Shown in pieces: positions 7,790 to 51,213 of a stretch of DNA of 64,000 nt. The position numbers and the translations under genes are program-made. Position 1 is the first letter of the stretch. The number at the start of each line of letters is the position of its first letter. The stretch lies in assembly GCA_025336725.1 (NCBI GenBank), contig GCA_025336725.1_3647.1; one strand, given 5' to 3'. The notes below the pieces were generated by a model. That model saw only the letters and a program-made list of their open reading frames with translations, ran no database searches and was not told the DNA's origin. This DNA is from Escherichia coli (GTDB taxonomy: Bacteria; Pseudomonadota; Gammaproteobacteria; Enterobacterales; Enterobacteriaceae).

Positions 7790-7809
7790 CTCAGCAGGTT
7801 CCTGTCTAC

Positions 7810-8295
7810 TTAACAGATCAGGTTCCCTTCTTTATCGAAGAGATCAGCGGTTACTTGTTCAAAAATCTGTTGTGTTTTTAACGAACTGCTCTGATCTACC
7901 ACGTTAAGCTGCTTGCCTTCTTTTGCAGCTTTATGAATGGTCACGTTATCACAACGCTCTTCCAGCCATGCAATGCAAGACTCTGCGTCAGCTTGCGCCC
8001 ATTCCCAATCAGGATGCTCTTTAGCCCAAGCTTCCTCTTCAATCTCAAAACCAAGCATGTGTGCGAGTGCTTTGGCATCGTCATACCACATATCGAAGAA
8101 ACGACGCAGGTATTCTTCAAAACTCAGCTCCACAGTAACTTGGCGAAGTGCCTTAACAATATCGTCTGTTAACTGCTCAGGCTGAAGATCACTCTTCATC
8201 AAAAGAGATACAGGTCTGTTGTTAGCGCTATAGCCTTGCGCCTTATGGCACAGGGCAATCCCCTTCTCTTTAATAGTGATTGTTTTTTCAGACAT
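7810..8295 (-). CDS. Hypothetical head morphogenesis protein
   Basis: 161-aa track ORF between portal and scaffold. Confidence 0.3.
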   Translation of the reverse strand: MSEKTITIKEKGIALCHKAQGYSANNRPVSLLMKSDLQPEQLTDDIVKALRQVTVELSFEEYLRRFFDMWYDDAKALAHMLGFEIEEEAWAKEHPDWEWAQADAESCIAWLEERCDNVTIHKAAKEGKQLNVVDQSSSLKTQQIFEQVTADLFDKEGNLIC

Positions 8296-10440: not shown

Positions 10441-11583
10441 TTAGATAAAACGCTTGAACATAGAGGGTGATGAGATTGATGGAATCACACAAGGCAGCGC
10501 TACCTCCTCTTTCTCCAGGAAATTAATCGCAGAAGCTACACAGTCGGCCCAGTCGTCTTTTCTGTTAAATGTTGATCTTTCCCCGTTGAATTTTTCAAGT
10601 TCAGTCAGAAATGCTTCCAGAGTATCAGGATGAAAACTGGATTTTACAATCCTCACCATCCCTTGTTGGGCAAGATTGGCAAAAGGTGAGAACCTTGTCA
10701 GTTTAGATTTGTTGGAAGGCATTGGGTCTTCTTCAACCCTGAACCCTTCGGCGAGCAAGGATCTGGATGAGGTTAAGAACTCACTCTTACCTGCCTGACC
10801 AGGGTCCACAGAAAATACGATTATGCAATCATCTCCATCAAACTGCGCCTGTTTTCTGATGATCACATCTCGTTCCCCAGCCTTTTTACAGAACTTGCCT
10901 TCCAGACCTGTGGAATACCTCCCGTCATCCACGTTCTCAGGACAATAGTCCCCAGATAGGTAATAAAAGCCGTCGCTATCTTTACTTACCTTAACACTGG
11001 CGGTAAAGTCAGGAAATTTATTACCGGAAGTTCTCTCGGTTCCTGCCTTATCCCATGCCCTGCAAGATACTGATCCAAGAGGTACTCTATCGGCATCACG
11101 AAGGAAAGATCTTTGGAAATAGTTTGCACCCTCAGGTTTGGCAAACCAGTTGCCATGAAGAAGCTGGGCTTTTTCCAGCTCTGGCAGACCTTCAAGGAAA
11201 GCAAGGTATTCTGGGTTGTCTCTCAGGCATACAGGATTATCGAAAATTGTTGCGCCTATAAACGAGAATGACAACGGTCTTGGCTTGATTTCCACACCTA
11301 GTCCATTGACCGTAGTGTATTTCTCTATTAACTCCTCTTTAGAGTCTCCCCAGATAAACTCACCGTCGCGTCGGATAAAATATCTTTTCTTACCACATTT
11401 CTCCGGATCTGGATACCCTTCATCGTCCAACCACCACCTAACCAGTTTGGCAAGCATGTGTTCTGAGTCGGGGTTACAACTGATAACCATTCTTGATGGA
11501 TACTTTGACTGAGATCGCAGACGAGACATCAAATAGTCTATCTGCTCCCATTCGAATTGCGTGCCTTCATCGAAGCAAACCAT
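10441..11583 (-). CDS. terL: Large terminase, Walker B and nuclease segment
   Basis: Begins MVCFDEGTQF (Walker B hhhhDE); same frame as 11611..11988, separated from it by a single TAA at 11608-11610. Confidence 0.75.
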   Translation of the reverse strand: MVCFDEGTQFEWEQIDYLMSRLRSQSKYPSRMVISCNPDSEHMLAKLVRWWLDDEGYPDPEKCGKKRYFIRRDGEFIWGDSKEELIEKYTTVNGLGVEIKPRPLSFSFIGATIFDNPVCLRDNPEYLAFLEGLPELEKAQLLHGNWFAKPEGANYFQRSFLRDADRVPLGSVSCRAWDKAGTERTSGNKFPDFTASVKVSKDSDGFYYLSGDYCPENVDDGRYSTGLEGKFCKKAGERDVIIRKQAQFDGDDCIIVFSVDPGQAGKSEFLTSSRSLLAEGFRVEEDPMPSNKSKLTRFSPFANLAQQGMVRIVKSSFHPDTLEAFLTELEKFNGERSTFNRKDDWADCVASAINFLEKEEVALPCVIPSISSPSMFKRFI

Positions 11584-11610
11584 GGTGTATTCAAGTCCTT
11601 GATGGTTAGT

Positions 11611-11988
11611 TTATCTTGGACATACTCCATGTGGCAGTATTTTACAACGGCCTCCTTTTTTGCTCCTGTCCCACTTGCCAGTGCTCGGATCAAACCGTGG
11701 AAAAATAAACTTATGATCCTTCTCTCTGAACTTTGGTTTAATGTTTTCAGGCAGATCACTGTAAATAGCTACTGCTTTAGGCCATAGCCCACCCTCACCT
11801 TCCAACTGTGGAGTTGTTCTTCGGAACATAACCACAGAGCTGTGTGGGTCATCAATAATTTTAAGTGGCATTAGCTGCAAGAGGAACGACTTGCCAGAAC
11901 CGGCTGCACCTCCGATCACCAAAATATCTGCATCGTTCTCAAGGATCATCTTCTGCTTTTCAGAACACGGTCCGTAAATCTTAGACAT
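11611..11988 (-). CDS. terL: Large terminase, N-terminal ATPase segment
   Basis: Walker A GGAAGSGKS; ends at an in-frame TAA 8 codons before the downstream segment. Confidence 0.75.
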   Translation of the reverse strand: MSKIYGPCSEKQKMILENDADILVIGGAAGSGKSFLLQLMPLKIIDDPHSSVVMFRRTTPQLEGEGGLWPKAVAIYSDLPENIKPKFREKDHKFIFPRFDPSTGKWDRSKKGGRCKILPHGVCPR

Positions 11989-13326: not shown

Positions 13327-13331
13327 AAAAA

Positions 13332-13430: not shown

Positions 13431-13528
13431 ATATTATGCGAATCATGCTGCTAGTCGGCGATGACGACTGTAACATTTGTTAATCCGGTTCTGCTTCCGG
13501 AGCTCGCTTAATTTCATGATCCACGATC

Positions 13529-13618: not shown

Positions 13619-13730
13619 TTTTATAAACAACACTGATAATGACACTGATTTTCGAACAGTTAGTGACTAGTATAAACGACGATAAACATCAATGTCATTA
13701 TCTATGTTATTTATCACAAATATGTAATTT

Positions 13731-13817
13731 TGGTGGGGAGTGATGGAGTCGAACCACCCGAGTCGCAATGACAATAGATTTACAGTCTACACCGCTACCC
13801 CTACGGTATAACTCCCC
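13731..13817 (-). tRNA. tRNA-Tyr (anticodon GTA), long variable arm
   Basis: Acceptor GGGGAGT/ACTCCCC, anticodon stem GTAGA/TCTAT with loop CTGTAAA, ~15-nt variable arm, T-loop TTCGACT, CCA. Confidence 0.6.
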
Positions 13818-13821
13818 GATT

Positions 13822-13896
13822 TGGCACCCCGTACTGGACTCGAACCAGTGTCAACGGCTTAGAAGGCCGCTGCTTTATCCACTAAGCTAACAGGGC
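13822..13896 (-). tRNA. tRNA-Arg (anticodon TCT)
   Basis: Anticodon stem GCGGC/GCCGT with loop CTTCTAA, T-loop TTCGAGT, CCA; acceptor contains G-U wobbles. Confidence 0.55.
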
Positions 13897-23022: not shown

Positions 23023-23511
23023 ATGAAACTTGATAAAAATGTTCAACGAAAAGCTTTCTTGGATATGATCGCATATTCAGAAGGCACAGATAATGGTAGA
23101 CAACCTACCAAGGATCGGGGATACGATGTCATAGTTGGTGGCAAGCTGTTTAGCGATTACAGCAAGCATCCAGGTGTGTACGTTAAGCTAAATTCTAAAC
23201 TTACCTCCTCTGCCGCTGGTCGTTACCAAGTTTTGGAGAAGTTTGCTAAACACTATATGAAGCAGTTAGGATTGCCAGATTTTGGCCCTGACAGTCAGGA
23301 TAAGATTGCCTTACAGCTAATCCGTGAGTGCAAGGCACTTGATGATATTGATGAAGGGCGTATTCATCAGGCCATTTATAAATGCCGCAGCCGCTGGGCA
23401 AGCTTCCCACCACCACCAGGGGCTGGAAAGCTGTACAATCAGCGAGCAGAAAGTATAGACAAGATGCTGGAGATCTTTAAGAAGGCAGGTGGAGTTGTTA
23501 CAGATGAGTAA
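23023..23511 (+). CDS. Endolysin, lambda R-like lytic transglycosylase
   Basis: QRKAFLDMIAYSEGTDNGRQ...GYDVIVGG...FSDYSKHP closely matches lambda R as I recall it; start refined to ATG after GGAGAG. Confidence 0.8.
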   Translation: MKLDKNVQRKAFLDMIAYSEGTDNGRQPTKDRGYDVIVGGKLFSDYSKHPGVYVKLNSKLTSSAAGRYQVLEKFAKHYMKQLGLPDFGPDSQDKIALQLIRECKALDDIDEGRIHQAIYKCRSRWASFPPPPGAGKLYNQRAESIDKMLEIFKKAGGVVTDE

Positions 23512-24187
23512 CGGGATTGACTGGTGGAGTGTCTTTAGATACGATACAGGCACTGGAAGGTTGTTTTGGAAGTCCCCACCAAAAAACAAACCTCAACTGA
23601 TGGGAAAGGAGGCTGGATGTACTAACATGGACGGGTACAGGGATATAATCTATCGCGGCGTGCATTACTACAGGCATAGATTGGTGTGGGAGATGCATTA
23701 TGGACCAATTCCAGAAGGGTACGAAGTTGATCACATAAAGCCACTTTTCTATTCCGATGGTGTTGCTGATGACAGGATAGAAAACCTACAGCTGTTAACA
23801 CCAGAAGAAAACGCAAAAAAGGCGGCAGATGACGGATGCCTGGCACGCAAGATACCTAAATCTAACACTGGACACTTGGGTGTATATTTTCATGCTAGAA
23901 CTGGAAGGTATGCTGCTTTTGGTAAGGTAGGTCATTACTATAAGAAAGACCTAGGAGAATACGATACCTTAGAAGAGGCCCTTGCTGCTCAAAAGTCTTT
24001 TGAAAGTGGCACGTTTGTCAGGGAATATCGTGGACAGCCTTTAGGGAGGGATAAATCTAGAGGTGTCAGATTTGAAGCAGATAGGGGCAAATGGAAAGTA
24101 ACTTTCAGAGGAAAAACGATAGGCAGGTTTGACACCAAAGAGTCTGCTGAAGCGTGTTACGCAAAGGCTCTTGCTGAAAGATTGTAA
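23489..24187 (+). CDS. HNH homing endonuclease with AP2 domains
   Basis: HNH core VDHIKP...NLQLLTPEEN followed by two AP2-like repeats (GVYFHARTGRYAAFG..., GVRFEADRGKWKVTF...). Confidence 0.7.
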   Translation: MELLQMSNGIDWWSVFRYDTGTGRLFWKSPPKNKPQLMGKEAGCTNMDGYRDIIYRGVHYYRHRLVWEMHYGPIPEGYEVDHIKPLFYSDGVADDRIENLQLLTPEENAKKAADDGCLARKIPKSNTGHLGVYFHARTGRYAAFGKVGHYYKKDLGEYDTLEEALAAQKSFESGTFVREYRGQPLGRDKSRGVRFEADRGKWKVTFRGKTIGRFDTKESAEACYAKALAERL

Positions 24188-24474: not shown

Positions 24475-24937
24475 GTGGAAGACGGTCGTTTAATGAAGTC
24501 TGAACGCAGGCTTATTGTGCAGCTGATCCCAGAAACAGCTTGGTATAATAACCTACGAAACGCTGTGAAGAAGAGCGAGTGGGATAAGATCCGTAAGAAG
24601 TGCTACAGAGAGGCCAACTACACTTGTGAGGTGTGTGGCGGTAAAGGTAGCAAACACCCAGAATTAGTGTCATGAACTTTACACTTTCGAAGGGGGTGAT
24701 CGGCTTGTAGGACTGATAGCGTTGTGCCCAGACTGTCACACATCGGTGCATCCAGGGTTAGCAAATATCCGTGGAAAGTATGCTCAGGCAGTTAATCAGT
24801 TGGCTAAGGTGAATAAGATCACCAAGGGTATGGCAGAGGCCTATTACCGAGACTGCTTTGCAGAGTGGCGTGAGCTTAGTAAAGTTCCAGAATGGAAGAC
24901 TGACTTTTCGTGGATAGAGGGTTACCTTGATGGCTAA
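24475..24937 (+). CDS. HNH-like zinc-finger nuclease, apparently frameshifted
   Basis: CEVCGGKG...HPELV in one frame continues as CHELYTFEGGDRLVGLIALCPDCHTSVH in the adjacent frame (~24655). Confidence 0.4.
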
Positions 24938-27052: not shown

Positions 27053-27676
27053 GAGAGCGTCTATTATCCATAGACCAGTCGTTGACACACACAGCTTGTG
27101 TTGTATGGGACGATGGAAAGCCTGTTCATAAGGTTGTATTACGAACTCAAAGCTCATCTGCAAAAGAGAAGAAACCAGGGACGGTTTCTTTTGCAACAGC
27201 TGCTGAGCGTATTGACTGGATCTGCAAACAGGTCAGATATTATATCCACACGCACGGAGTTGACACCGTGGTTATGGAAGGGCTTTCCTTTGGATCACGC
27301 GGGGATGCCACACGTGAACTGGCGGGTTGTTTTACGGTCTCGAAGTATGCTTTGGGATGCTTTAGCAGATTGTGAAAATGACGGCCTGTTTAAGGTCCAC
27401 ACAGTAACACCGACAACCGCCAAAAAGTTTGCTCGTAGTCATCTTCCTGAAGAACTTGCTTTTGAGGAGAAGAAAAAGCTTGACAAAAAGACAGGTAAAG
27501 AGCATACTGTGAAGAAACCTGTTACGATGGATAAAAAGTTAATGGTTAAGGCCTGTGAAGTATCTGAACCAGGGTTTCTGGATGGGATCAATTTAAGATA
27601 CAAGGTAAGGCCGATCTGCAGATGCCTACGGATAGGCAGGGCGCATCTGGAGGGATTATCGCAAAGCGTAAAATAA
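27049..27676 (+). CDS. RNase H-fold nuclease (RuvC/YqgF-like resolvase candidate), apparently frameshifted
   Basis: SIDQSLTHTA...VVMEG in the first frame; continues in a second frame after ~27340 (near TGTTTTA). Confidence 0.3.
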
Positions 27677-28231
27677 GAAAGAAAGCTGTCAAAGCTCCCG
27701 TTCATAGCGGGTGGCTAAAAGATTCTAAGGACATAGCCAACTTTCGGAAAGAATTGTCAGAAGAGCAGGATGGCCTTGATCCGATCTTGTGCGAGCCACT
27801 TCGTAAGCCTTGTTTAGATCATGATCATCTGACTGGTCGTTGCAGAGGTGTTTTGTCCCAATGCACTAATACCTTTGAAAGATATGTGCTTAAATACTGG
27901 ATGAAATACTGTAGCGAGTATCAGGTGCAGTTTATCAGAGGCGTTGCGCCGGATGGCTGACTATCTGGAGAAAGACTACAGCGACTTCCCGCTCCACAAA
28001 AACTACAGAGACGATATGACAAAGTTCTTGAGGAGATGCTCTAAAGCCACAATTATTGCACGAGCAGAATCGGATCTCGATCTTGTCATTAATCCAGAGT
28101 ACACTAAGCATGAGGCTATTGAAGCCTACATGCAGGAGTTCATAAAGAAAACTGAGGAGAGAGACTTCTATGGGGATGAAAAAGGTATTCAATCCTTGCG
28201 ATTCAGTTCTGATCAGGATGAAATACCGTAA
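27622..28231 (+). CDS. Endonuclease VII-like resolvase, apparently frameshifted
   Basis: CLDHDHLTGRCRGVL...CTN resembles the T4 gp49 core; C-terminal part (ADYLEKDY...) lies in the next frame from ~27950. Confidence 0.5.
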
Positions 28232-30891: not shown

Positions 30892-32459
30892 TGGATATTA
30901 TTGTTCTTAATGCACCACCGTGCTGCGTCCCGAGTGGTACAGAGTTCCTCACCAAATCCGGGTGGAAAAGTATAGAAGATTTTGATAATGATTTCGTGGC
31001 GGTGTGCGATAAATTTGGGGCAATGCATTGGGAGATACCTGAATTTATTGAAGGCAATACTCCAGTTTTTGAAAAGGGCGTTTTTGCCACATGGTCTATG
31101 GTTTTAACACCTAACCACAAAGTTCTGTATGAAAACAGAAGAGGATCAAGAATTGCTAGAGAGTGGTCAGAGATAACTTTGGAATCCAAAACTGGCTACG
31201 ATGGATATATACCTGCCACCTTCCATCAAGAGTCTGGAGAGGATGTGGACGATTTTGACCTGCTTAGAGTTGCAATCCTAGCAGACTCTTCTGAGGTTAA
31301 AAACCGAGAAGGTGTGTTAATGTTTAATATTAAAAAGGACCGTAAAAAGGAGAGGCTGCGATACTTATTTAAAAGAACTGGAGTAACCTTTTCCGAAAAA
31401 GAGTTTGAGAGTATGCCTGGTTACACCCGTTTTTTCATTCACAACAGCCCTTTCATGAAGAAAGATGGTATACCTAGCCACTGGTGGAATCTCTCTTCCA
31501 AGGCCAGTGAAAAACTACTAAACGAGATGCTGAAATGGGATGGGTGCGAGAAATACAAATCTTTCTCAACCACTTCTAAAGAGGAGGCAGATCTATTTCA
31601 GCTTTTAGCAGCAAAATGTGGGAGAAAGGCCAAAATTGAAATAGATAACTACAAAAGGGAGTGTGATGAAGAGAGCAGAACTCGTAGCGTTTGCTATGCG
31701 GTAAAAATTCTAAAGTCAGACTCTTATTCGATGCGTAAAAGTGGCGGATATGATAATCCCGATAAAGCTTTTCAACCTTACAAAGAGGAGTTACCTGGGG
31801 GTAAGTGTTACTGCTTTACCACAACAACCGGATTTTGGGTGGCAAGACAAAACGGTATGGTGTTTTTAACAGGTAACAGTGGAAAAGACCATATTGCAGA
31901 TCTCTTGTTGGAAGCTATTCCTAACTCACACCACCGTGAGGTTAAGGAGATGCTATTCAGTGTGGCAATTAAGGCAGCTGGTGTAACTCCTCAGCTCTGG
32001 AATGCACTTTATGACCGCCACTACAAAGAAGAGCCTTGCCCTTTCTTAATGATAGACGGCAAGCATGTTTCTCCGCGAGAATGGATGATCCATTGTAGTG
32101 AAAATCTGATTAAACCTATCTTTGGTGAAGATGCTTTCGGTAAAGCCGCAGTCGCATCTTTGAAGAAAGATTTCCCTGAAGGTAAAGGGGTTATTGTTTA
32201 CTCCGATGGTGGATTCAAAGAGGAGCTGGCATGCCTTAGTGAGTACGCATACAGCACAGGTGGAGATCTGTTGTTGTTCCGTATTCACCGTGTCGGATAT
32301 GACTGGGGAAATGATTCCAGAACCTATCTAAGTCTGGAAAAGAACGGAATAAAAGGGATTGAGTTTGATGTTGTAAACCCTGAAGGTGCACCTTGGGAAT
32401 GTGCATCGGAGATTGTGTGCAAGTATATTGATGCTAAAGAGGCACAAGAAGAATGTTAA
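30891..32459 (+). CDS. dNMP kinase (T4 gp1-like) interrupted by an intein
   Basis: Extein MDIIVLNAPPC + SGKDHIADLL... gives a P-loop of the T4 gp1 type (RSGKDT); extein C-terminus resembles dNMP kinase. Confidence 0.6.
   Translation: MDIIVLNAPPCCVPSGTEFLTKSGWKSIEDFDNDFVAVCDKFGAMHWEIPEFIEGNTPVFEKGVFATWSMVLTPNHKVLYENRRGSRIAREWSEITLESKTGYDGYIPATFHQESGEDVDDFDLLRVAILADSSEVKNREGVLMFNIKKDRKKERLRYLFKRTGVTFSEKEFESMPGYTRFFIHNSPFMKKDGIPSHWWNLSSKASEKLLNEMLKWDGCEKYKSFSTTSKEEADLFQLLAAKCGRKAKIEIDNYKRECDEESRTRSVCYAVKILKSDSYSMRKSGGYDNPDKAFQPYKEELPGGKCYCFTTTTGFWVARQNGMVFLTGNSGKDHIADLLLEAIPNSHHREVKEMLFSVAIKAAGVTPQLWNALYDRHYKEEPCPFLMIDGKHVSPREWMIHCSENLIKPIFGEDAFGKAAVASLKKDFPEGKGVIVYSDGGFKEELACLSEYAYSTGGDLLLFRIHRVGYDWGNDSRTYLSLEKNGIKGIEFDVVNPEGAPWECASEIVCKYIDAKEAQEEC
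30924..31877 (+). mobile_element. Intein (318 aa) with homing-endonuclease-like insert
   Basis: Block A CVPSGTEF, block B TPNH (TxxH), C-terminal FLTGN followed by +1 Ser; central LAGLIDADG-like LLRVAILADSSE. Confidence 0.6.
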
Positions 32460-33046
32460 TCGGAATTGATGTAGATTTGACACTGGTAGATTCAGGAACA
32501 GCATGGTGGGAGTGGTTGGAGCGTTTGTATGGTCCAGCCAGTAAGACAGTCGCTAAACCTTCTAACGGACTGATGTATTACGATCTGTCAAAGTATTGGC
32601 CTGATCGCCCCAAAGAAAACATCATAGGGCCTTTTGATTTTTGGAGTGACCCGTTCCTCTACGACTTTCTTAAGCCTGAAGAGGGGGCTATTGAGGTTAT
32701 GAAAGATTTGGTGGCTCGTGGTCACAAGCTTGCATTTATCTCGGTATGCAAGAAAGGTCACCTTGCATCTAAATCAAGGTTCTTAAAGCGTTGGACCAGT
32801 GATTTTATGGATCTTGACGATCACACCCAGGGCCACGGCTTCTACGCCACACATTTCAAAGGAAATGTGGCTGTAGATGTTATAATTGACGACAGGCATG
32901 AATACCTAAACCAATTCGCTTCACGACCTGAAGTTATTAAAATCCTAAAAGATACGCCTTATGAGCAATTCGAGGAGTTAAAGGTCAGTGTTGACTATAC
33001 CGCTAATAGCTGGTATAAAATAGGAAAGTTTTTAGAAGGTATTTGA
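32453..33046 (+). CDS. HAD-family 5'(3')-deoxyribonucleotidase-like hydrolase
   Basis: N-terminal IGIDVDLTLVDS (DxD nucleophile motif). Confidence 0.55.
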   Translation: MLIGIDVDLTLVDSGTAWWEWLERLYGPASKTVAKPSNGLMYYDLSKYWPDRPKENIIGPFDFWSDPFLYDFLKPEEGAIEVMKDLVARGHKLAFISVCKKGHLASKSRFLKRWTSDFMDLDDHTQGHGFYATHFKGNVAVDVIIDDRHEYLNQFASRPEVIKILKDTPYEQFEELKVSVDYTANSWYKIGKFLEGI

Positions 33047-33047
33047 A

Positions 33048-33248
33048 ATGGGCAGATGTTCTAAAGGTGGCGATCCTGTAGTCAGATACGGTGACTGGCT
33101 AGAGGTGTATGATCTGGGAGGTAAGCTGGTGTATGCCTCCAGGATCACCCAAGACATGTGCTCCGATATGTTCAACAGATACCTTGCATTTAAGGCCAAC
33201 ATAAACCCAGACGAAATTTCCAAAATTAAAACAAGGAGAGCTAAATAA
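33048..33248 (+). CDS. Hypothetical protein
   Basis: 66-aa track ORF. Confidence 0.3.
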   Translation: MGRCSKGGDPVVRYGDWLEVYDLGGKLVYASRITQDMCSDMFNRYLAFKANINPDEISKIKTRRAK

Positions 33249-34231
33249 TGCTAAAACTGTGCACTGCAAAGATCATTGCTGACAGCATTTCCGAGAAAGG
33301 TAAGCGCATCACCACTTTTGAGCTAGAGTATCCTCGAATTATTCACTCAGAGCTTATGACGCATCGAGTATTCAGCCGAAACGCCATGTCTTCCCGTGCA
33401 GTTCCTGTCGGCAAGATGCTGCAACAGATTGTGGAGAATCCTGCAATGCCAGTTCGCTTCGGTGCAAATAAGCGAGGGATGGAAGATGGTGGGGAACACG
33501 ATCAAAAGATCCGTGTAGAGTACACTGACATGGAGTTAACTCCTGAAGAATTTTGGAAAGAAGCTGCAAAAAACGCCGCTTGGCATGCAGAGAAGTTCGC
33601 ACTTGCTGGTTACCATAAGCAAGTATGTAACCGCTTAGTGGAGCCTTTTCAACGCATGAAAACAGTTGTAACAAGCACCGAGTGGAATAATTTTTTCCAC
33701 CTCCGTTGCTGGCACGATGCGGATCCTACGATTCAGATGTTGGCTAATTGTATGTGGGAAGCTCTTGTGAATAGCACCCCTGAGATCCTTAAACCAGGTC
33801 AATGGCACACCCCATATGTAGAGCACGTTTATTTGGACGGAGAGTTTAACTACGCTGTACGTGACACAGAAGGAAAGCTCTGCATCCTCGATACTAAAGA
33901 AGCTCTGTCTATCAGTGCTAGTTGCTGTGCACAAGTATCTTATCGAAATATTGACAGCACGTTTGAAAAGGCAGACAGTGTGGCTAAAAAATTGATTGGT
34001 GGGGATCGTATTCATGCAAGCCCTTACGAGCACCAGGCAACACCTATGGATCACGATAACGCAATGGAACGTTTAAACTACTATCTATCTTCATGTGAAA
34101 TCACACAAGACAGCTGTGTTTGGCAGGAAGGTGTAACCCATCAAGACCGTGATGGTAAATTCTGGTCTGCCAACTTTTGTGGGTGGGTTCAGCACAGACA
34201 ACTGCTTAATAACCACTTCGTGAAAGGTTAA
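33248..34231 (+). CDS. thyX: Flavin-dependent thymidylate synthase ThyX
   Basis: ThyX-like signature ELMTHRVFSRNAMSSRA (HR...SxR). Confidence 0.65.
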   Translation: MLKLCTAKIIADSISEKGKRITTFELEYPRIIHSELMTHRVFSRNAMSSRAVPVGKMLQQIVENPAMPVRFGANKRGMEDGGEHDQKIRVEYTDMELTPEEFWKEAAKNAAWHAEKFALAGYHKQVCNRLVEPFQRMKTVVTSTEWNNFFHLRCWHDADPTIQMLANCMWEALVNSTPEILKPGQWHTPYVEHVYLDGEFNYAVRDTEGKLCILDTKEALSISASCCAQVSYRNIDSTFEKADSVAKKLIGGDRIHASPYEHQATPMDHDNAMERLNYYLSSCEITQDSCVWQEGVTHQDRDGKFWSANFCGWVQHRQLLNNHFVKG

Positions 34232-34290
34232 TCCTATCACAGCGATAGGTAACTTCTGTGTTGACTAATACTATCAGATAATCTATAATA

Positions 34291-34791
34291 ATGGCTCACT
34301 TTGTTGGTGAGCCAGAAATGGAGACAGATATGAGTAATGTTATGATTCCTAAAAAGACATTTATTTCAGTTACTTTAGATTTTCTATCTACCGTTCCCGG
34401 GTTTAACGTTCGCACACGAAACGGTCTCCGAGCTGCACTCTTTGCCATAGGGTTTGATTTAAAAAGTATTGATGTTCTTCGTGGAAAAAACGTTCGATGC
34501 AGAAATAAGCCAACACATTATCGAAAGACAGATGTATTTGCTGGTGTCATGCGTGCAGACTTTAGATACCCACAAATGTATAACGGTGTAGATATTTTAG
34601 ATGTAGATAAAGCACCCGGTGAGGCAATGCTTGTTCAAGATCTTCCGTATGATATCCCTGTAGAGGATCGTGTTAATGTAAGAAAGTATACAAAACAATC
34701 TGAAAAGGCTGAAGATATTCATATTGTTGATGAACCTTTCAATTTTGAAGATCTGCATCGCCTGGAAAAATTATTCGGTATTGAAAGCTAA
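34291..34791 (+). CDS. Hypothetical protein
   Basis: 166-aa track ORF. Confidence 0.3.
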   Translation: MAHFVGEPEMETDMSNVMIPKKTFISVTLDFLSTVPGFNVRTRNGLRAALFAIGFDLKSIDVLRGKNVRCRNKPTHYRKTDVFAGVMRADFRYPQMYNGVDILDVDKAPGEAMLVQDLPYDIPVEDRVNVRKYTKQSEKAEDIHIVDEPFNFEDLHRLEKLFGIES

Positions 34792-35032
34792 GGTGGTGAA
34801 GATGAGTCATAACTCCAAGTGGAAGGATCTTGGTTTTGCAAGTCGGGCAGAATATGTTGGTTGGCTTTGGTTCAACGGTCTGACAAACGATATTAAAATG
34901 TATGATGATGTTTATTATGACGAGTATACAGGTAAAATTATAAATATCTCTGTAGAAGAGGATACCTTTACTCGGCAAGATACTGATACCTGCCTTGATA
35001 AATACGTGGATGAAGTGGAGGAAGCAAATTGA
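34724..35032 (+). CDS. Hypothetical protein
   Basis: Track ORF; likely start is the internal Met (MSHNSKWKDL...) around 34801. Confidence 0.3.
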   Translation: MLMNLSILKICIAWKNYSVLKAKVVKMSHNSKWKDLGFASRAEYVGWLWFNGLTNDIKMYDDVYYDEYTGKIINISVEEDTFTRQDTDTCLDKYVDEVEEAN

Positions 35033-37344
35033 TCACCAAAGTAATTAAAAGTAACGGATGTGAAGTTGAATTCGATCCAGAACGTTTAAATAAGGCAGCT
35101 ATTTTCGGTGACGACGGTAACGGCAATTGGTCACATATTGCAATGGATGCATACAAACGTCTGTATGATGGATGCACAACCAAAGAAGTTAACCAAGCTA
35201 TTATAGATTCATGTGTTAGCCGTAAAGACGAAGCACATTCCCGTATGGCTGGTCGTGTTCTTATTGGTCAGATCTATAAAGAGGCTTTTGGAGGGTTTAC
35301 AAAGATCCCTTCCTTACCATCATTCTACAATACCATGGTTGAGAAAGGGTATTGGGAGGATATGGGTTATAGCTTTACTGAGTTAAACACTTTAAACACT
35401 GTTATTGATCACAGTAAAGATCTCGGTTATGGCTATGCAGTCCTTAAACAGTTTCGTGACAAATACGGGATCAAGGATACTCTTAAAGACACCCTGTTTG
35501 AATCTCCCCAGATGATGTTTATGGGGATAGCAATGGCTGTAATGAAGAATATGCCTAAAGAACGCCGTATTAACGATGTTGTAAAATTATACACTTATCT
35601 GTCAGACTTAAAGATCAATGCCCCGACACCGTACTTAAACGGTCTACGCACAGGCAAGACAGGGTATGCATCTTGTTGCGTAATAAAAGCTGACGATACA
35701 GCAAAGTCTATTGGTGTGGCACGTGAAGTTGCTTACACAATGACGGTTAACCAAGCAGGCATTGGCTACTATTTATCGTCAAGATCTGCAGGTGATGGTG
35801 TTCGTGGTAACACGATTAAACATATGGGAAAGCTCCCATATTATCGTGGTATTGATGCTGGGGTTAAGGAGAATAGACAACAATCCCGTGGTGGTTCGGC
35901 AACAGTGTCATTCCTTGCACTGGATCCTCAGATTGATGAGCTAATCCGTTTGAGAAACCCTATGACTGTTGCTTCAAAAAGAATCAACACTATGGATTAT
36001 TCCATAGGTATTAATAGGTCGTTTATCAACCGTGTGGCTAAAAATTTAGATTGGATGCTTGTTTCTTATAAGCACGCACCTCAGCTGCATGAAGGCATCT
36101 TCACCATGTCTATGGAGGAGTTTGATGCAGAGGTTGATCGGATCGCTAAAGATGACAGTATTCCTAAAACATGGATCCGTGCTAGAGATCTTGCTGCTGA
36201 ACTTATCACGCAGCGTACTGAGGTAGGAAGACTGTATGTATACTGGACAGACGAGATGAATAGGCATACACCTTTTAAAGATGTAATCTATTCAAGCAAC
36301 CTGTGTGCAGAGATAGCCCTTCCGACAAAAGGCTATTCAGATATGCGTAATATCTTCAAGTATGATGCTGATGATGGTGAGGTTGCATTGTGCTTCCTAT
36401 CATCTCTTGTAGCTGGGAGGGTTACCCCAGAGGAGTATGAGGACGTTGCATACTACACGGTGCTTATGATTGACAATGTTATGGAAATCATGACATATCC
36501 GTATGAAAATATGGAGAGCACTGTTAAAAAACGCAGATCCATCGGGGTTGGCCTTACCAATGTTGCACATTTTATTGCCAGCCACAAGGTTACTTACGGA
36601 TCTCCTGAAAGTAAACAGCTTGTTCACGATCTTGCAGAACTCCACAGCTACAGCTTGCATAAGGCAAGTTTACGGTTGGCAAAAGAGCGTGGTGTCTGCG
36701 AGTGGATGCATAAAACAAAATATCCAGAAGGTTGGTTACCAATCGACACCTATAACAAAGAGGTCGATAGCGTGGTGAAAGATCCTTCTCTTAAACAGGA
36801 TTGGGAAGGGTTACGTAAAGAAATAATTGAAAATGGTGGGCTACGTAATAGCGTTCTTGAAGCATATATGCCTAATGAAAGCTCTTCGCTGGCAACAAAC
36901 ACCACTAACGGGGTTTATCCTGTCCGTGAGCACATTATCTTTAAAAAGTCGCCACAAGGGCAGGTGCTGTTTATCGTTCCTGACTATGATGAGTTGAAAG
37001 AGTATTACACTTCGGCTTGGGACGTTGATACTAACGACATGATCGATATGTATGCTGTGATTCAAAAATTCACAGGTCAGGCAATCAGCGCGGATTTATA
37101 CATCGACTACACCAAGTTGAAAGATGGTAAAATTTCAATGAAGGAGCAGCTGGGTTACCTTATCCGTGCTACTAAATTCGGGATGAAGACATGGTATTAT
37201 TTAAACTCCAGGGTTGGTGCTGGTGACTCCTTGGCAGAGGAACTTCATGCCAAGAAACAGGCTGAAGATGAAACCAGAAAGAACTATCCTTTGATTGCAG
37301 ATAGTTCAGTTGAAGATCCGTATTGCGAAAGCTGTGCACTATAA
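35029..37344 (+). CDS. nrdA: Ribonucleotide reductase class Ia large subunit
   Basis: 771 aa, NrdA-typical length, followed by NrdB-like and glutaredoxin genes. Confidence 0.7.
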   Translation: MITKVIKSNGCEVEFDPERLNKAAIFGDDGNGNWSHIAMDAYKRLYDGCTTKEVNQAIIDSCVSRKDEAHSRMAGRVLIGQIYKEAFGGFTKIPSLPSFYNTMVEKGYWEDMGYSFTELNTLNTVIDHSKDLGYGYAVLKQFRDKYGIKDTLKDTLFESPQMMFMGIAMAVMKNMPKERRINDVVKLYTYLSDLKINAPTPYLNGLRTGKTGYASCCVIKADDTAKSIGVAREVAYTMTVNQAGIGYYLSSRSAGDGVRGNTIKHMGKLPYYRGIDAGVKENRQQSRGGSATVSFLALDPQIDELIRLRNPMTVASKRINTMDYSIGINRSFINRVAKNLDWMLVSYKHAPQLHEGIFTMSMEEFDAEVDRIAKDDSIPKTWIRARDLAAELITQRTEVGRLYVYWTDEMNRHTPFKDVIYSSNLCAEIALPTKGYSDMRNIFKYDADDGEVALCFLSSLVAGRVTPEEYEDVAYYTVLMIDNVMEIMTYPYENMESTVKKRRSIGVGLTNVAHFIASHKVTYGSPESKQLVHDLAELHSYSLHKASLRLAKERGVCEWMHKTKYPEGWLPIDTYNKEVDSVVKDPSLKQDWEGLRKEIIENGGLRNSVLEAYMPNESSSLATNTTNGVYPVREHIIFKKSPQGQVLFIVPDYDELKEYYTSAWDVDTNDMIDMYAVIQKFTGQAISADLYIDYTKLKDGKISMKEQLGYLIRATKFGMKTWYYLNSRVGAGDSLAEELHAKKQAEDETRKNYPLIADSSVEDPYCESCAL

Positions 37345-37349
37345 TTTTA

Positions 37350-37371
37350 AAGGGGCTTCGGCCCCATTTTA
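37350..37371 (+). terminator. Hairpin plus T-tract between nrdA and nrdB (attenuator-like)
   Basis: GGGGC-ttcg-GCCCC followed by ATTTT. Confidence 0.45.
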
Positions 37372-37382
37372 GAGGTAGAATA

Positions 37383-38470
37383 ATGGCTGTATTTAATGCT
37401 GAGAACACCGCTCATAAAACTGGTGACTATCCGCTGTTTCTGGGACAGCAAATGGGCATGTACGACTCTATCAACAAAAAATATCCACAACTGTTTGAAC
37501 TATACAAAAAACAAAAAGAGCAAGATTGGGCAGAGGATGAAGTGGATTTGTCGCAATCTATTTCAGATTTTGTAACATGCTCTAAGTCAACTTATGACGT
37601 GATGGTGCAGACCTTGATGTGGCAATGGGAGGCTGATAGCGTTGCGGCAAGATCGATTATCTGCCTCTTTTCACCATTCATCACTAATAGCGAGCTTTTC
37701 ACTCTACTGATGAAACAGTCAGAGATTGAAGTTCTTCACGCACTAACCTACTCAGAGATTGTTAGACAATGCCTCCCTAATGCTCGTGAGATTATAGAAG
37801 AGATTCAGGAAAACCAAAACGTTCTGAGCAGATCTGGCGTTATTGTCAAATACATGCAAGAGCTTGAGATTATTGGTGCAAAATACCGACTGGATCCTTC
37901 TAGTGTTGAAGAAGATATTGTGCGGAAATGCATTCTTAGAGCGCTTTTGCACTTTTAGCTCTGGAAAGTATTGAGTTTGTGCAAGTTTTGCATATACTTT
38001 CGCAGTAGCTGAACAGGGTATTTTTTGTTCAGGTAGCGCAGCTTGTTCAAAAAATCATGCTTGACGAAATGCTGCACTCGAAAGGTGATTTTGCCATCAT
38101 TGATATCCTGCTTAATGATCCAGCATGGGAGAAAAGCTTCCTTGAGATAAAAGGGGAGTTAAAAGAGATTCTTGATGAAGTACGAACCAAAGAGTACGGT
38201 TGGAGCGACTATATTTTCAGCGAAGGAAGAGCGATTATAGGTCTTAACTCACCGTTGCTTAAAGAATGGGTTGACTATAACTGTTCACCGATTTATGATT
38301 ACTACGACATCGACAAAGACTTTGTGCCGCCAACAAAGGACCCGCTACCGTTTATGCAGGTGTGGATGAAACCTTCATTGCAACAGACGGCGAACCAAGA
38401 AATGTCGAACACTGACTACCGCGTCAACACAACTGTTAACGACGCTGAAGAAGAAATTTGGGAGTTTTAA
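37383..38470 (+). CDS. nrdB: Ribonucleotide reductase small subunit, disrupted by about three frameshifts
   Basis: N-part has ExxH-Y (EIEVLHALTY); the SFAxxFAxAE and DEMLH motifs appear in different frames within 37940-38060, each switch at a T-run. Confidence 0.65.
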
Positions 38471-38473
38471 TAT

Positions 38474-38752
38474 ATGAGCTGCGAAAAATCTTTTTTCATC
38501 ATCATTTACGGTAAGGATAACTGCCCACATTGTGTAAGAGCAAAAGAATTTGCAGTCAGTAAAGGCATACCTTTCGTATACAAGACGCTAGGTGAGGGAT
38601 ACACAAAAGAAGAGCTTATCGAGAAGTGTAGCCCATTTGTTCCCAGAACGTTGCCTCAGATCTTCTTGGAAAGCAACCTTAACAGTATCCACATAGGAGG
38701 TGCTGACGATTTCATCTCTTTTGTTAAGAATGGTTTTGGAGAGAAAAAGTGA
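38474..38752 (+). CDS. Glutaredoxin (NrdH-like)
   Basis: 92 aa with CPHC redox motif near the N-terminus. Confidence 0.65.
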   Translation: MSCEKSFFIIIYGKDNCPHCVRAKEFAVSKGIPFVYKTLGEGYTKEELIEKCSPFVPRTLPQIFLESNLNSIHIGGADDFISFVKNGFGEKK

Positions 38753-41378
38753 AAGTTGTAAAACGGGACGGTAGAGAAGAGTTTTATAACGGAATCAAGG
38801 TGATCAAGGCGGCAGAGTCCGCCTTACTTGAGTCTGGGCATACTGAAGAAGAAGCTTACCGGATTGCCTGCGCGGTTAATGAAGTTGTTGCCAACAATCT
38901 GCCAACCGACCAGTGCACGATCTCTGTAAAAAATATCCATATCCTTGTTGAAGATGCTCTTATGGATATGGGTTTAAAATGTGCAGCCAGAGAATACATC
39001 CAGTATAGACAGACAAGAGATAATAACAGAGAGGCAGGTGGAAAACTGCTTGCAGATATTAGTGGCTTTTTGGATCGTACTTGTGATGAATTTACAAAAG
39101 AAAACGCAAATAAGCCTACTAATCATGTACACACTCATCGTGACCTGCTTGCAGGAATCCTTAGCAAACACCTTGCATCAACACAGATCCTGCCAGATCG
39201 TGTCTCAGAAGAGCACAACAAGGGCTTCATCCATGTGCATGATCTTGACTACTTGATCAGTCCGTTAACAAACTGTTGTTTGGTAAATTATCCGGATATG
39301 CTGGAAAACGGATTCAACATTGGTAACGCCCATGTCAGCAAGCCTAAGTCAATAGGGGTTGCAACAACAATCCTTAGCCAAATCTCTAGTGCAGTAGCTA
39401 GTGCTCAATATGGTGGTCAGACTATGAGCCATATTGATCATTATTTGGCACAGTATGCTGAAGCCACCTATGAGAAGAACCTTAAATTTTGTCAGGAGCA
39501 TTGGTTGCCGGATGCTGAAGGCGTTGCAATGCAGATGACTGATAAAGACGTGTTTGACAGTATGCAGACGTTGCTTTATCAAATCAACACGTTAACTTCT
39601 GTCAACGGTTAACAAACTGGCCGTTTTAAAACTCTGCTAACCTCAGTATGAGGGGTCAGCTGATTGCTGGCTAACGGGGAACGCTAAGGCGAAAGCTATG
39701 CCAATCCCGTGACTAGCTTCACAAGGAGTGAGGCGGTTGTAACGACTAACCTTTTGGTGTAGGGATTATGGAAGATTCCGAAACGCAGAGGTCTGATTAA
39801 GAATCACATGGTGTGATTTCAGGCAAGAGATAGTCTGGCCTTGTGGAAACATAAGGGTGGGGACCGCAAACCCCTTTTATCACATTAAGTTTAGGACTTG
39901 ATACCTCGGTCTTTGGTAGAATGATTACCAAAAACTATTTGAAAGTTCACAAAATGGGTCTTGGTGAAGAACGGATCACACCTGTGTTCCCTAAAGTATT
40001 GTTCTTCCTAGAAGAGGGTGTCAACATGAGCCCTGAGGATCCTAACTATGATTTGAAACGATTAGCTCTGGAATGCTCTGCAGAGCGGATTTATCCTGAC
40101 TTTGTTTCTGTTCCGCTAAATCGTAAGGTGACAGGTTCTACAGATGGCAAAGTAACGAGCATGGGTAAACTATAACTGCTCATGTAAAATCTATCTAAAC
40201 GGGGAAACTCCAGAACGGACAATCCCGTGCTAAATGTTCTTTTGAACTAAATGCCTAACGACTAACCGTGATGAATGTAGCGGTGTAGGGTGTAAGCCGA
40301 TGACACTCGAAATGGTAGACACACTAAGTGTGAAGATATAGTCTGATCTGCATGGGAACATGCAGCAGCACTTAAAGGTGCGGGGGTGGACTTGCGAACC
40401 ACCCTGAACATAATGTGTAGAAGTTTCTTATCGAAATATAGCGACCCTGTAACAGGCGAGGAGAAATACCTTGGCAGATTTAACTTAGGTGTTGTTAGCC
40501 TTAACCTACCAATGATTGCGGCAAAAGCTAAGACGGAAGGTGTTGATTTCTTTACCGTTCTAGACGAATATCTGGATTTGGCATATGAAGCTCACCTTGT
40601 AAGGGTTAACCGTCTGAAAGGCACTAAGGCAGGTCAGAACCCCATCATGTGGTGTGAAGGCGCTCTTGCTCGCTTGGATCCTGAAGAGAGTATTGATAAA
40701 CTCTTCTATGACGGGTACGCTTCCATCAGTATTGGGTATATTGGTGTGTATGAAACCTGTCAGATTTTGGGTAGAGAGGGAGACAAGGCTTTAGCTCTTG
40801 GAATCCTTCAGCACATGAAAGATGCTTGTGAGCGATATAAGAAGGAAAGTGGTCTGGCATTCAGCTTGTACGGCACTCCTTCTGAAAGCTTGTGCTACAA
40901 AGCTGCAACCTGTCTGGATCGTGAATATCCTGAGGTATTGAAGCACGAGCATGAATATATCACCAACAGTTTCCACCAACCAGTATGGATCAATAGTTCA
41001 CCTTTTGATAAGTGGAAGTATGAAGAAGGTTTTGCTATGATCTCCTCTGGCGGCAACATTGGATACATAGAGACACCTAACCTGAAAAACAACCTGGATG
41101 CTTTAGAGGCTCTTGTTGACTTCGGGTATAAACACATTATGTATTTTGGTATTAACCAGCCAGTGGATAAATGTCTTAAGTGTGGATTCTCTGGTGAGTT
41201 CAGTGCAACAGCTAAAGGGTTCTGCTGCCCTGCGTGCGGATGCCACGATGAACAATATATCTCAGTGATCCGAAGAGTGTCTGGCTATCTCTCCAGCCCG
41301 AACAGTAGGCCGTATAACACAGGTAAACAAGCAGAGGTTATCGAGCGAGTTAAGCACTACGGAAGTTGTGGCTGCTGA
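38749..41378 (+). CDS. nrdD: Anaerobic ribonucleotide reductase, three exons
   Basis: Exon1 38749..39609, exon2 ~39867..40166 (GPQTPF...DTS...GRMIT...PEDPNYDL), exon3 40416..41378 (CRSFL, RVSGYL glycyl-radical motif, CxxC...CxxC). Confidence 0.7.
39610..39866 (+). mobile_element. Group I intron 1 in nrdD (ORF-less, ~257 nt)
   Basis: Exon ends in T, intron begins with TAA stop and ends in G; contains AAGAGATAGTCTGG resembling the group I core; exon reading frame restored after removal. Confidence 0.5.
40167..40415 (+). mobile_element. Group I intron 2 in nrdD (ORF-less, ~249 nt)
   Basis: 5' exon ends ATGGGT, intron ends in G before TGT AGA (CRSFL); contains AAGATATAGTC, the conserved group I core element. 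Confidence 0.6.
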
Positions 41379-45767: not shown

Positions 45768-46028
45768 TTGTGTATTGTTGTTATCAACAAGGGGGTCATT
45801 TATGTATGTCATTTTCAATTTACTCAAGACAGGCGAAACACTACACAGAGATTCTGATCACTCAGAAAAAATCTGTAGAAGGTGAGGGAATATCATCATA
45901 AATGCGTCCAGATCGGGTTTTTGATAGGCTTATTGCTATGATCCCTCTTGAGAAGTATACCCTCTGACAGGTCATAGGGATGCTTGGGATTTAATTGATT
46001 ACATAGATTCATTTAAGGAGCCTAGTGT

Positions 46029-47902: not shown

Positions 47903-48309
47903 CGATGTTTGTTAAATATGTAAAAACGTGCCTCAACAGTCTTGGTAGAGAGCATTGGTACACACTGCTTGAAAAAGGAGAAATTTTAACAAAATCTGGA
48001 AAGATAACTTTGATACCTTTGGACGATAAAGATCCGTCACTACTTGTCATAGATGATTACGTTACAGGTGTGTCGTACGAGGTATCTGTAGAGAGGTTAA
48101 TACGCAGATCTGGAGGTCCTTATGACCGAAGAGAGTATGTTTTCGATTCCGTTACAGAGAAGGAAGATCCGTCCCTAATGTTTAGGATGGTGATCAGGGA
48201 TATGAAATCATCTATAAATAGGATCGTAAAGGACATTAGAAGGCCTTTTAGGGTAAAAGTTAAGAAGTTTTTGATTCTAAAAAGATCAACATACTCGCCG
48301 TTGTGCTAG
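47899..48309 (+). CDS. Hypothetical protein
   Basis: 136-aa track ORF. Confidence 0.3.
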   Translation: MTMFVKYVKTCLNSLGREHWYTLLEKGEILTKSGKITLIPLDDKDPSLLVIDDYVTGVSYEVSVERLIRRSGGPYDRREYVFDSVTEKEDPSLMFRMVIRDMKSSINRIVKDIRRPFRVKVKKFLILKRSTYSPLC

Positions 48310-50497: not shown

Positions 50498-50900
50498 TTG
50501 GGGACTGTTGTGAAAAATAAACTGTTCAAAGTTACAATGAAAATTCGCGGAGCTTGGAGCGTAAAGCAAGGGCGTATCCCGGAATTTGAAAAAGACTTCT
50601 ACGTAGTCTCCACCTCGGAGGCTGCATGCTGTGAGCTGGCTGTACTATGCAAGAACTGTCGAAGGATACCAGACTGGTGGCTATGACGGAGAAATTATAA
50701 GCAAGGGTGTAGAAGAAATTAATGTGTTGACAAGTGAAAAAGTTTTTGTTATAGTGCATCCAGATTCCAGAGTGAAGCATTACTGGAATGCCAGAACAAA
50801 AACTTGGACACCGTTTGCAGATTCTGCTACGCCACTTTTAAACCAGAAAGCTCTTGACTCTGCCCCAAGTTATGGGGTTGTTGAAGAAAAGCTAGACTGA
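50498..50900 (+). CDS. Hypothetical protein, apparently frameshifted; paralog of 52705..53100
   Basis: Two overlapping track ORFs; C-part VIVHPDSRVKHYWNARTKTWTP matches VMRHPHSNIAYYWDVLNNEWTP of the 52705 ORF. Confidence 0.35.
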
Positions 50901-51213
50901 AACAGTGAGGTACTAACATGATGGATTTAGTTCTGGACACTGATAACACCGGAGAGTTTAAAAAGGATGGTGTAACAAGCGTTGACCAATCCTTCTCTGC
51001 CAAGATTGACTCAAAATGGACCTACAAGTTTGATGGAGATCTCCGCAAATGACTAAGGAAGGTTGTAGATGCTGCAGCCATTTTGAACGCTCTGGATACG
51101 ACCCTGTGAATCCTTTGATCAAGGATCCTGTTGAGTTTGCAGAGTATGTTCGAAAAATGGCAGATCTTGCTGTAGATATTTTAGACACTATCGACAACAA
51201 GCTATAAAAACTG

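Follow-up and report, generated by a model that had tools for sequence, protein, structure and literature searches.

The window, by which we mean the whole 64-kb stretch of DNA that was analysed, is part of a 122-kb Vequintavirus (rV5-like) contig in a draft Escherichia coli assembly (proteins MCT7477488-91). Its ribonucleotide reductase (RNR) region has the gene order found in rV5, BP9 and CM1: thyX, nrdA, nrdB, grx, nrdD, nrdG. In the window, nrdD is split by two group I introns (two RF00028 hits in Rfam). A sequence-only reading of the window had described an intact nrdA beside an nrdB that appears as two ORFs with a gap between them (37323..37958 and 38057..38470), and both descriptions hold. 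The features of this segment are listed below.

nrdA, 35029..37344, + strand: intact, 771 aa; 99.1% identical to BP9 NrdA; corresponds to NCBI protein MCT7477488.1
nrdB, 37383..38470, + strand: 1088 nt in the window versus 1089 nt in relatives, a net change of -1
nrdB 5' part, 37383..37958, + strand: from the native ATG to a premature TAG; 191 aa ending RALLHF
Indel 1, 37945..37948, + strand: a T4 run versus T5 in relatives, at codon 188; TAG follows four codons later in the upstream frame
Indel 2, 37976..37981, + strand: TTTGTG versus TTTATTG in relatives; A>G plus one T lost, at codon 199-200
TAT codon, 37994..37995, + strand: C205Y after frame repair; TGC in close relatives, TGT in the L011/L012 lineage
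Indel 3, 38021..38026, + strand: a T6 run versus T5 in relatives, at codon 213
nrdB 3' part, 38027..38470, + strand: frame 2, VQVAQLVQKIMLDEMLH...EEIWEF*; the listed ORF starts from ATG 38057

Identity and reading frames of nrdB

The identification of the gene as nrdB is secure. The N-terminal fragment matches Pfam PF00268 (Ribonuc_red_sm) with E=7.6e-14 (52.2 bits against a cut-off of 33.6, compared with 104.8 bits for the intact BP9 orthologue), PHROG 86 is matched with E=3.7e-108, and E. coli R2 can be aligned to the region. Nucleotide identity to the genes for rV5 gp106, BP9 NrdB and CM1 NrdB, the class Ia beta subunits of Vequintavirus, is 97.6-98.2% over 1.2 kb. When the BP9 orthologue is aligned to E. 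coli R2, residues D84, E115, H118, Y122, E204, E238 and H241 all align. The window keeps the same di-iron ligands and radical tyrosine residues, spread across three frames. The frame breaks (codons 188-213) fall between the iron ligand equivalent to E204, within ALESIEF, and those equivalent to E238 and H241, within LDEMLH.

Unlike in rV5, BP9 and CM1, the nrdB frame of the window is interrupted at three points from codon 188 to codon 213. Alignment to intact relatives resolves the disruption, described earlier as about three breaks within about 100 nt, into three 1-nt indels within 77 nt, and the window differs here from more than 140 relatives. The 5' ORF (37323..37958, with the native ATG at 37383) ends in ...KCILRALLHF*, and the NrdB translation as recorded is therefore interrupted, stopping at codon 192. 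Its 191-aa product is identical to NCBI protein MCT7477489.1, which is recorded solely from this one NCBI contig. The upstream part of nrdB lies in frame 0, the peptide AFALLALESIEF in frame 2 (about 37943-37978) and ASFAYTFAVAEQGIF in frame 1 (37981-38025), and from 38027 the sequence VQVAQLVQKIMLDEMLH... is back in frame 2, where the 3' ORF (38057..38470) begins MLDEMLH. All three frames are used, and each contains a stop within 37940-38060. There are thus three switches, but the earlier placement of the conserved segments in three different frames is not correct, since ALESIEF and LVQKIML share one frame. Likewise, the statement that each switch occurs at a T run applies to two of the three, which are pure changes of run length, whereas indel 2 combines a substitution with a lost T.

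The position of two switches at T runs would be compatible with expression of nrdB by programmed recoding, through ribosomal frameshifting or transcriptional slippage at these runs. However, three successive shifts would be required, with wrong-frame stops within 4-14 codons, and efficient slippage needs T runs longer than the 4-6 nt present here. In addition, the frame break is not conserved, since the annotated relatives examined have one uninterrupted 1089-nt ORF with T5 runs. Recoding is effectively refuted. The two ORFs with a gap also resemble the arrangement produced by the group I introns of bacteriophage T4 nrdB and nrdD. Unlike the T4 nrdB intron, nothing is inserted in the nrdB of the window, and the range 37000-38700 has no Rfam match; an intron in nrdB is ruled out. 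A metagenome scaffold (L015) was considered as evidence of an intron or homing site near the patch and was rejected, as it gave no Rfam hit and no phage match. Its nrdB homology ends at window position 37917 and is followed by unrelated AT-rich sequence, and the scaffold may be chimeric.

Undoing the three changes yields a 362-aa NrdB ORF that is 99% identical to that of BP9 and differs from it at three residues (V163I, I200V and C205Y). Eleven of the 15 private nrdB substitutions are synonymous. Together with the three amino acid differences in 362 residues, this gives no sign of relaxed selection on nrdB, nor of the substitution decay that would characterize a pseudogene. The three indels are the sole indels across 7.5 kb (32082-39608) relative to BP9, and the calculated chance that three random indels in 6.4 kb land within 77 nt is about 4e-4. 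Their isolation in 7.5 kb and their confinement to 77 nt point to a single bad patch and not to independent neutral events.

Interrupted nrdB genes in other vequintaviruses

Three other vequintaviruses resemble the window in having a broken nrdB but unbroken nrdA, grx and nrdD. One of them is L010 (Logan, SRR19500616), a different strain from an independent assembly that is 94.8% identical to the window. Its nrdB has both the T5>T4 deletion and the TAT codon in common with the window, and a second frameshift near codon 270. The substitutions of L010 are almost all at third codon positions and look accurate, to judge from their pattern, and its extra non-synonymous changes are found in nrdB only (P35L, V183I, C205Y). 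In L013 (Logan, ERR13987301), nrdB has a +2 change at codon 140 and E358*, and it is the sole frame-broken gene in 20 kb. Phage vB_Eco_Alma (OV101294) has R268* in nrdB. Apart from the shared deletion, the lesions of these phages lie elsewhere in the gene and are spread out, compared with the 77 nt affected in the window. The independent lesions in L013 and Alma indicate that real loss of nrdB happens.

The window could accordingly hold a real, recent loss-of-function allele, in which slippage shortened the T5 run at codon 188 to T4, as in L010, with the other changes following in a dead gene, or in which one complex event produced them all. The phage would then depend on the host NrdAB plus its own NrdDG. 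Phage-encoded class I RNR is dispensable in bacteriophage T4, which makes such a loss conceivable, and two of the three indels are run-length changes, the type expected of slippage. Nevertheless, we consider this explanation unlikely. Three independent neutral indels should bring tens of substitutions at indel-to-substitution ratios of 0.03-0.05, and nrdB shows no such decay. Moreover, the alleles flanking T4 and TAT in the window are CM1-like, which rules out a recombination tract shared with L010. With a CM1-like haplotype up to its flanks, the T4 allele was not inherited from an L010-like donor, and a parallel event is needed. Finally, the best listed matches among 182 phage records all have 182 nt where the window has 181, and none has the net length of the window. 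If the lesion were real, rV5-like phages could drop the small subunit of the aerobic RNR yet retain nrdA and the anaerobic nrdDG; taken together, this case and those of L010, L013 and Alma would suggest that nrdB is lost repeatedly.

The sequences L011 and L012 (Logan) were rejected as representatives of the same phage; they contain the exact glutaredoxin sequence of the window, yet are 94-96% identical overall and have an intact nrdB. The sequence has no match among E. coli complete genomes, and among plasmids a single homologue turned up (CP057073), which is intact. The T4 allele was not found when viral, metagenome and genome contigs were scanned for the exact pattern; these scans carry no weight, because the intact T5 pattern was absent from the viral contigs too. 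A literature search for frameshifts in rV5 nrdB and for SRR19500616 returned nothing relevant.

Lesions and indel statistics across the record

The nrdB indels are truly present in the record, clustered and essentially unique to it, and the record contains other lesions of the same style, including one in the terminase gene. About 13 conserved genes in the 64-kb window have private lesions, compared with 1-2 in control genomes. Besides nrdB, ten conserved genes occupy two frames, where the same test gives one in CM1 and two in rV5, and internal stops are found in the large terminase gene, a 192-aa gene and others. The affected genes encode the terminase, a gp62-like protein, Endonuclease VII (EndoVII), a RuvC-like resolvase, an HNH protein and several small products. 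The patches measure about 10-80 nt, contain 2-5 small indels together, often by mismatches, and lie inside highly conserved genes. Four of them are given below.

gp62-like head-module gene (rV5 gp62 homologue), 7806..7815, - strand: a -2/+4 patch at a GTAC site that yields two ORFs; 325 aa in relatives
Large terminase lesion, 11608..11651, - strand: within the gene 10444..11988; -1 and +1 indels 43 nt apart, each adjoining a mismatch
RuvC-like resolvase gene, 27323..27343, + strand: two 1-nt deletions 20 nt apart that split the gene
EndoVII gene, 27922..27925, + strand: two 1-nt deletions 3 nt apart that split the gene

In the terminase gene, the shifted stretch holds a TAA at 11611-11613, and a lost GTAC lies between the two indels. 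Identity to this stretch does not exceed 97.3% in any of the 148 phage records that match it, 119 of which cover 80% or more of the query. The gp62-like stretch is 321 nt long in the window versus 319 nt in the best matches listed out of 118 records, and the RuvC-like stretch is 691 nt versus 695 nt in all 40 records listed of 121 matching ones. The gp62-like, RuvC-like and EndoVII lesions were not found in the listed relatives. The gp62-like gene has no match in Pfam, NCBIfam or PDB and belongs to PHROG 2970, which has no assigned function; from its position and conservation, it is presumably essential. A phage without terminase cannot package its DNA. A viable phage could therefore not contain all the lesions of the record, and the occurrence of similar lesions in terminase and other genes also speaks against a real loss of nrdB.

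We propose that the three nrdB indels are probably errors of the sequence record and not properties of the phage. The actual gene would be undamaged and encode a normal class Ia RNR beta subunit of 362 aa, and its patch (37945-38026) would be one of the short indel patches of the window, which may have arisen during base calling, consensus building or polishing. In that case, the contig would be unfit for inferring gene loss, and roughly 13 disrupted ORFs would need correcting.

Homopolymer errors had been suggested as the likeliest cause. The private patches in other genes and the absence of decay in nrdB favor an artefact. Homopolymers are not a general weakness of the record, however: compared with BP9, 207 of the 213 coding homopolymers of at least 5 bases are free of indels, and the control genome rV5 gives a similar rate. 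Only 6 of these coding runs in the window have an indel, and two of the 6 are the T-run changes in nrdB, which would also suit slippage in a real allele. Small indels in a locally at least 90% identical context number 74-90 per comparison for the window and 30-38 between controls, and a mismatch lies within 2 nt of 39% of them in the window versus 18% in the controls. Indels show no association with Dam sites (7/79 versus a background of 9.5%). The private substitutions show no enriched sequence context beyond GTAC, and their spectrum is transition-rich, like real divergence.

Several observations count against an error of the record. L010 shares both T5>T4 and the TAT codon, and nrdB is independently broken in L013 and Alma. 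The record is not globally error-rich, as judged from the clean homopolymer runs and from an indel-to-substitution ratio of 0.040-0.047, compared with 0.029-0.036 between controls. Furthermore, the indel patches are enriched beside GTAC. With these points taken into account, a real nrdB lesion of any origin appears possible, though it is not what we expect.

Altered GTAC sites and the indel patches

GTAC is the sole 4-bp palindrome with an excess of private change in the window: 19 of 59 conserved sites are altered versus 13% expected (p=1e-4), and Dam and Dcm sites are not over-altered. The window contains 84 GTAC sites; in three relatives, stretches that are a little longer (68 kb) contain 112-115. 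Fifteen private indels lie within 6 nt of GTAC, versus 3.6 expected, a four-fold enrichment, and besides the terminase patch, the gp62-like patch and several others contain a lost GTAC. L010 has no GTAC in 4.9 kb; its sister L011, which is 98% identical, has six such sites, every one of which is altered in L010. A biological process aimed at GTAC could thus contribute to the patches.

These observations would fit an explanation in which all the lesions are real: a host restriction system cuts at GTAC, inaccurate repair leaves scars, and selection purges the sites. The nrdB patch would be a scar around a former TGTAC at 37993, and the contig would represent a damaged genome, perhaps no longer viable, that was present in the E. 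coli culture. The TGT version of codon 205, found in the L011/L012 lineage, creates such a GTAC site, and L010 has TAT, like the window. However, the closest relatives have TGC and no GTAC at the nrdB patch, so that a TGT ancestor must be assumed, and the T-run changes lie 28-48 nt away from the former site. Propagation would not be expected of a phage whose terminase gene contains a stop and whose EndoVII, resolvase and head genes are split. In addition, the link to the motif requires no such biology: it would equally arise if GTAC carried a modified base that interferes with base calling from long reads. We therefore regard restriction scars as the source of all the lesions as improbable. 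Only slightly more credible, and still doubtful, is a broader proposal in which vequintaviruses lose nrdB repeatedly, codon 188 with its T5 run is a parallel slippage hotspot (in the window and L010), the same lineages are purging GTAC, and the patches are scars of restriction and inaccurate repair.

The GTAC signal may reflect rapid purging of restriction sites, or it may mark modified DNA in which base calling goes wrong; phage genomics would benefit from knowing of either. Many of the GTAC losses are clean synonymous changes.

The reading frame of nrdB

The ribonucleotide reductase small subunit gene nrdB (37383..38470) is split between two open reading frames. In a three-frame translation of 37880-38100, frame 2 encodes the conserved peptides AFALLALESIEF and, further on, VQVAQLVQKIMLDEMLH, frame 1 encodes ASFAYTFAVAEQGIF between them, and the upstream part of the gene is in frame 0. 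Alignment with intact relatives resolves the frame switches into three 1-nt indels.

37323..37958: first nrdB ORF, native ATG at 37383, C-terminal end ...KCILRALLHF*
37945-37948: indel 1, T5>T4
37976-37981: indel 2, TTTATTG>TTTGTG
38021-38026: indel 3, T5>T6
38057: start of the second nrdB ORF

The sequence-only reading had described two ORFs, conserved peptides spread across frames and three switches, and this description is confirmed. The gene is 1088 nt long in the window and 1089 nt in relatives, so that the three indels together leave it out of frame. Between the equivalents of the E204 and E238/H241 iron ligands of E. coli R2 the frame is shifted, and nrdB as recorded would therefore be unable to give an active protein. 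In a search matching 182 phage records, the stretch measures 182 nt in all of the 60 best matches listed and 181 nt in the window, whose net length is thus absent from those 60.

A 362-aa ORF results when a T is inserted at each of indels 1 and 2 and a T is deleted at indel 3; its product differs from the NrdB of the related Vequintavirus phage BP9 at three residues (V163I, I200V and C205Y). Because the differences after repair are so few, and because 11 of the 15 private nrdB substitutions are synonymous, the gene bears the mark of purifying selection that has lasted to the present. All three indels fall within 77 nt and are the only ones in 7.5 kb of the alignment with BP9; by our own calculation, three independent events in 6.4 kb would lie so close together with a probability of about 4e-4. 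Independent neutral decay fits poorly; the source of the indels was either a single local event or a single patch of local error.

Judged by its sequence, nrdB is a normal class Ia RNR beta family member, with the Pfam match and ligands of that family present and a single ORF lacking. Unlike nrdB of T4, it is not an intron-split gene of that sort. Recoding of nrdB has a vanishingly small probability, since the annotated relatives examined encode one uninterrupted ORF. Should the break be real, nrdB would be a pseudogene of an already known kind.

Other broken genes and the accuracy of the record

Every annotated BP9 gene was translated and searched against the window, and genes aligning in at least two frames were counted. 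There were 11: the intron-split nrdD and ten true frame breaks, namely nrdB, a 325-aa head-module gene (homologue of rV5 gp62), an HNH endonuclease, a RuvC-like resolvase, endonuclease VII and five small genes. The same test gave one gene in the related phage CM1 and two in rV5, and the ORF map confirmed the splits. The gp62-like stretch has its intact length, 319 nt, in the best listed of 118 matching phage records versus 321 nt in the window, and the resolvase-endonuclease VII stretch its intact 695 nt in the best listed of 121 versus 691 nt. Private small-indel patches split or shift the gp62-like, HNH endonuclease, RuvC-like resolvase, endonuclease VII and rV5 gp128-like genes and several small ORFs, whereas these genes are intact in BP9, CM1 and rV5. 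An internal-stop scan added the large terminase.

7806-7815, 24665-24702, 27323-27343, 27922-27925, 45806-45950, 48239-48279, 50622-50660, 51040-51094, 51958, 60353: private small-indel patches
10444..11988, minus strand: terminase large subunit, with its lesion at 11608-11651

In the terminase, a +1 and a -1 indel, each adjoined by a mismatch, stand 43 nt apart; they put 14 codons out of frame, creating an internal TAA, and enclose a GTAC>GTCC change. The best identity to this stretch among matching phage records is at most 97.3%. Without a working terminase, a phage cannot package its DNA; in a phage that propagates, this lesion at least is therefore very unlikely to be real.

Lesions throughout the window follow one style, two to five small indels within 10-80 nt, and the nrdB patch fits it. 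Where local identity is at least 90%, each comparison yields 74-90 small indels for the window versus 30-38 between control pairs, and 39% of those in the window have a mismatch within 2 nt versus 18% in the controls. Private small indels comprise 54 deletions versus 25 insertions. The homopolymer mechanism proposed in the sequence-only reading holds only in part: two of the three nrdB switches are pure T-run changes, the middle one being a deletion with an adjacent A>G, but indels affect just 6 of 213 coding homopolymers of at least 5 bases aligned to BP9 (two of the six in nrdB), versus 5 of 220 in the control rV5. The indel-to-substitution ratio is only slightly raised (0.040-0.047 versus 0.029-0.036 between controls), and the 1,839 private substitutions are rich in transitions and for the most part synonymous. 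Most of the window is therefore accurate, truly diverged sequence with scattered bad patches.

We consider the nrdB lesion to be probably an artefact of the sequence record, because of the stop in the terminase, the count of conserved genes that are broken, the patches that pair indels with adjacent mismatches, and the lack of decay in nrdB. As a feature, the break is most likely not real.

nrdB lesions in relatives and the GTAC signal

A real lesion specific to nrdB is unlikely, yet some evidence speaks for it. The 90% cluster of truncated NrdB has a second 191-aa member, likewise ending RALLHF, from the 4.9-kb Logan contig L010 (SRR19500616), a different strain with 94.8% identity to the window.

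L010 1056-2142: nrdB with T5>T4, a TAT codon at 205 (C205Y), a second deletion at GAGTAC, and P35L
L013 (Logan contig, ERR13987301) 10001-11088: nrdB with +2 in a GA repeat at codon 140, and E358*
L003 (phage Alma) 2587-3675: nrdB with R268*, CGA>TGA

L010 has the T5>T4 deletion and the TAT codon in common with the window, and carries its additional 1-nt deletion 246 nt downstream; its nrdA, grx and nrdD are unbroken. In its sister contig L011, 98% identical, nrdB is intact. The nrdA substitutions between the two fall nearly all at third codon positions, and thus L010 looks accurate, so that an independent, apparently accurate contig carries the T4 allele. Import of both alleles from an L010-like donor is ruled out by the window's CM1-like haplotype, which reaches their immediate flanks; the alleles arose either by parallel mutation or through one and the same systematic error. 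The lesions of L013, where nrdB is the sole frame-broken gene among 36 in 20 kb, and of Alma are unrelated to that of the window, and real nrdB loss therefore occurs in vequintaviruses.

Two side observations concern these contigs. In L013, nrdA, endonuclease VII and a methylase all contain stops no more than 12 codons from their ends. In the ENA metagenome scaffold L015 (2141-2305), vequintavirus nrdB homology ends at the equivalent of window position 37917, 28 nt before the first indel. The next 164 nt are AT-rich and unrelated, and Rfam and phage matches were not found in them; this is either an insertion or a chimeric scaffold.

GTAC is the only 4-bp palindrome with an excess of private change in the window, Dam and Dcm sites changing at a normal level. 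Among the 59 GTAC sites conserved in three relatives, 19 are altered, versus 13% expected (p=1e-4), and the G position is changed 11 times (p=5e-6). The window has 84 GTAC sites versus 112-115 in slightly longer (68 kb) stretches of three relatives. For 15 private small indels, a GTAC of a relative is 6 nt away or less, versus 3.6 expected and a maximum of 11 in 2000 shuffles. L010 (1-4897) lacks GTAC altogether, all six L011 sites being altered in it. Lost GTAC sites occur inside the terminase, gp62-like and several other patches, and an ancestral TGT codon, the state seen in L011, would give the nrdB patch one too.

This signal fits a biological reading, in which restriction sites are purged and cleavage leaves scars, and also a technical one, in which modification at GTAC disturbs long-read base calling; the technical one would also account for the identical odd calls in L010 and the window. 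Of 16 coding GTAC changes in the window, 9 are synonymous, a share above that given by fully random errors, yet compatible with errors confined to the outer G/C positions. A real, genome-wide damage process linked to GTAC is a distinctly improbable explanation. At GGCC sites, a private indel lies within 10 nt in 9 of 70 versus a 3% background, and substitutions are not in excess.

Gene neighborhood

The sequence of the window is that of an rV5-like E. coli myophage in the genus Vequintavirus. More than 100 phage records are 97.6-98.2% identical to its nrdB region, and BP9, JEP1 and similar phages show 93.5-95.8% identity over a 24-kb stretch. Exact protein look-up (NCBI) gave MCT7477488.1 for NrdA, MCT7477489.1 for the 191-aa NrdB fragment and MCT7477491.1 for glutaredoxin. 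The three proteins carry the label Escherichia coli and share one 122,420-bp contig, and the window is therefore part of a phage contig within a draft bacterial assembly. The local order is thyX, two small genes, nrdA, nrdB, grx, nrdD and nrdG.

38749-39609, 39867-40166, 40416-41378: nrdD exons, with two group I introns (257 and 249 nt) between them
18505-19113: free-standing HNH endonuclease gene, PHROG 953
23489-24187: free-standing HNH endonuclease gene, PHROG 99
13089-13896, minus strand: six tRNA genes (Pro, Met, Thr, Ser, Tyr, Arg)

The nrdD introns score 28.1 bits (below the gathering score) and 72.7 bits against Rfam RF00028. In contrast to the two introns here, nrdD has one in CM1 and is uninterrupted in BP9, rV5 and Alma; in rV5_ev146 and L010, an ORF sits between the nrdD pieces. 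Both HNH genes are probably mobile homing endonuclease insertions. They lie in segments without alignment to BP9. The tRNA cluster of six is also found in rV5, whereas the BP9 annotation has five.
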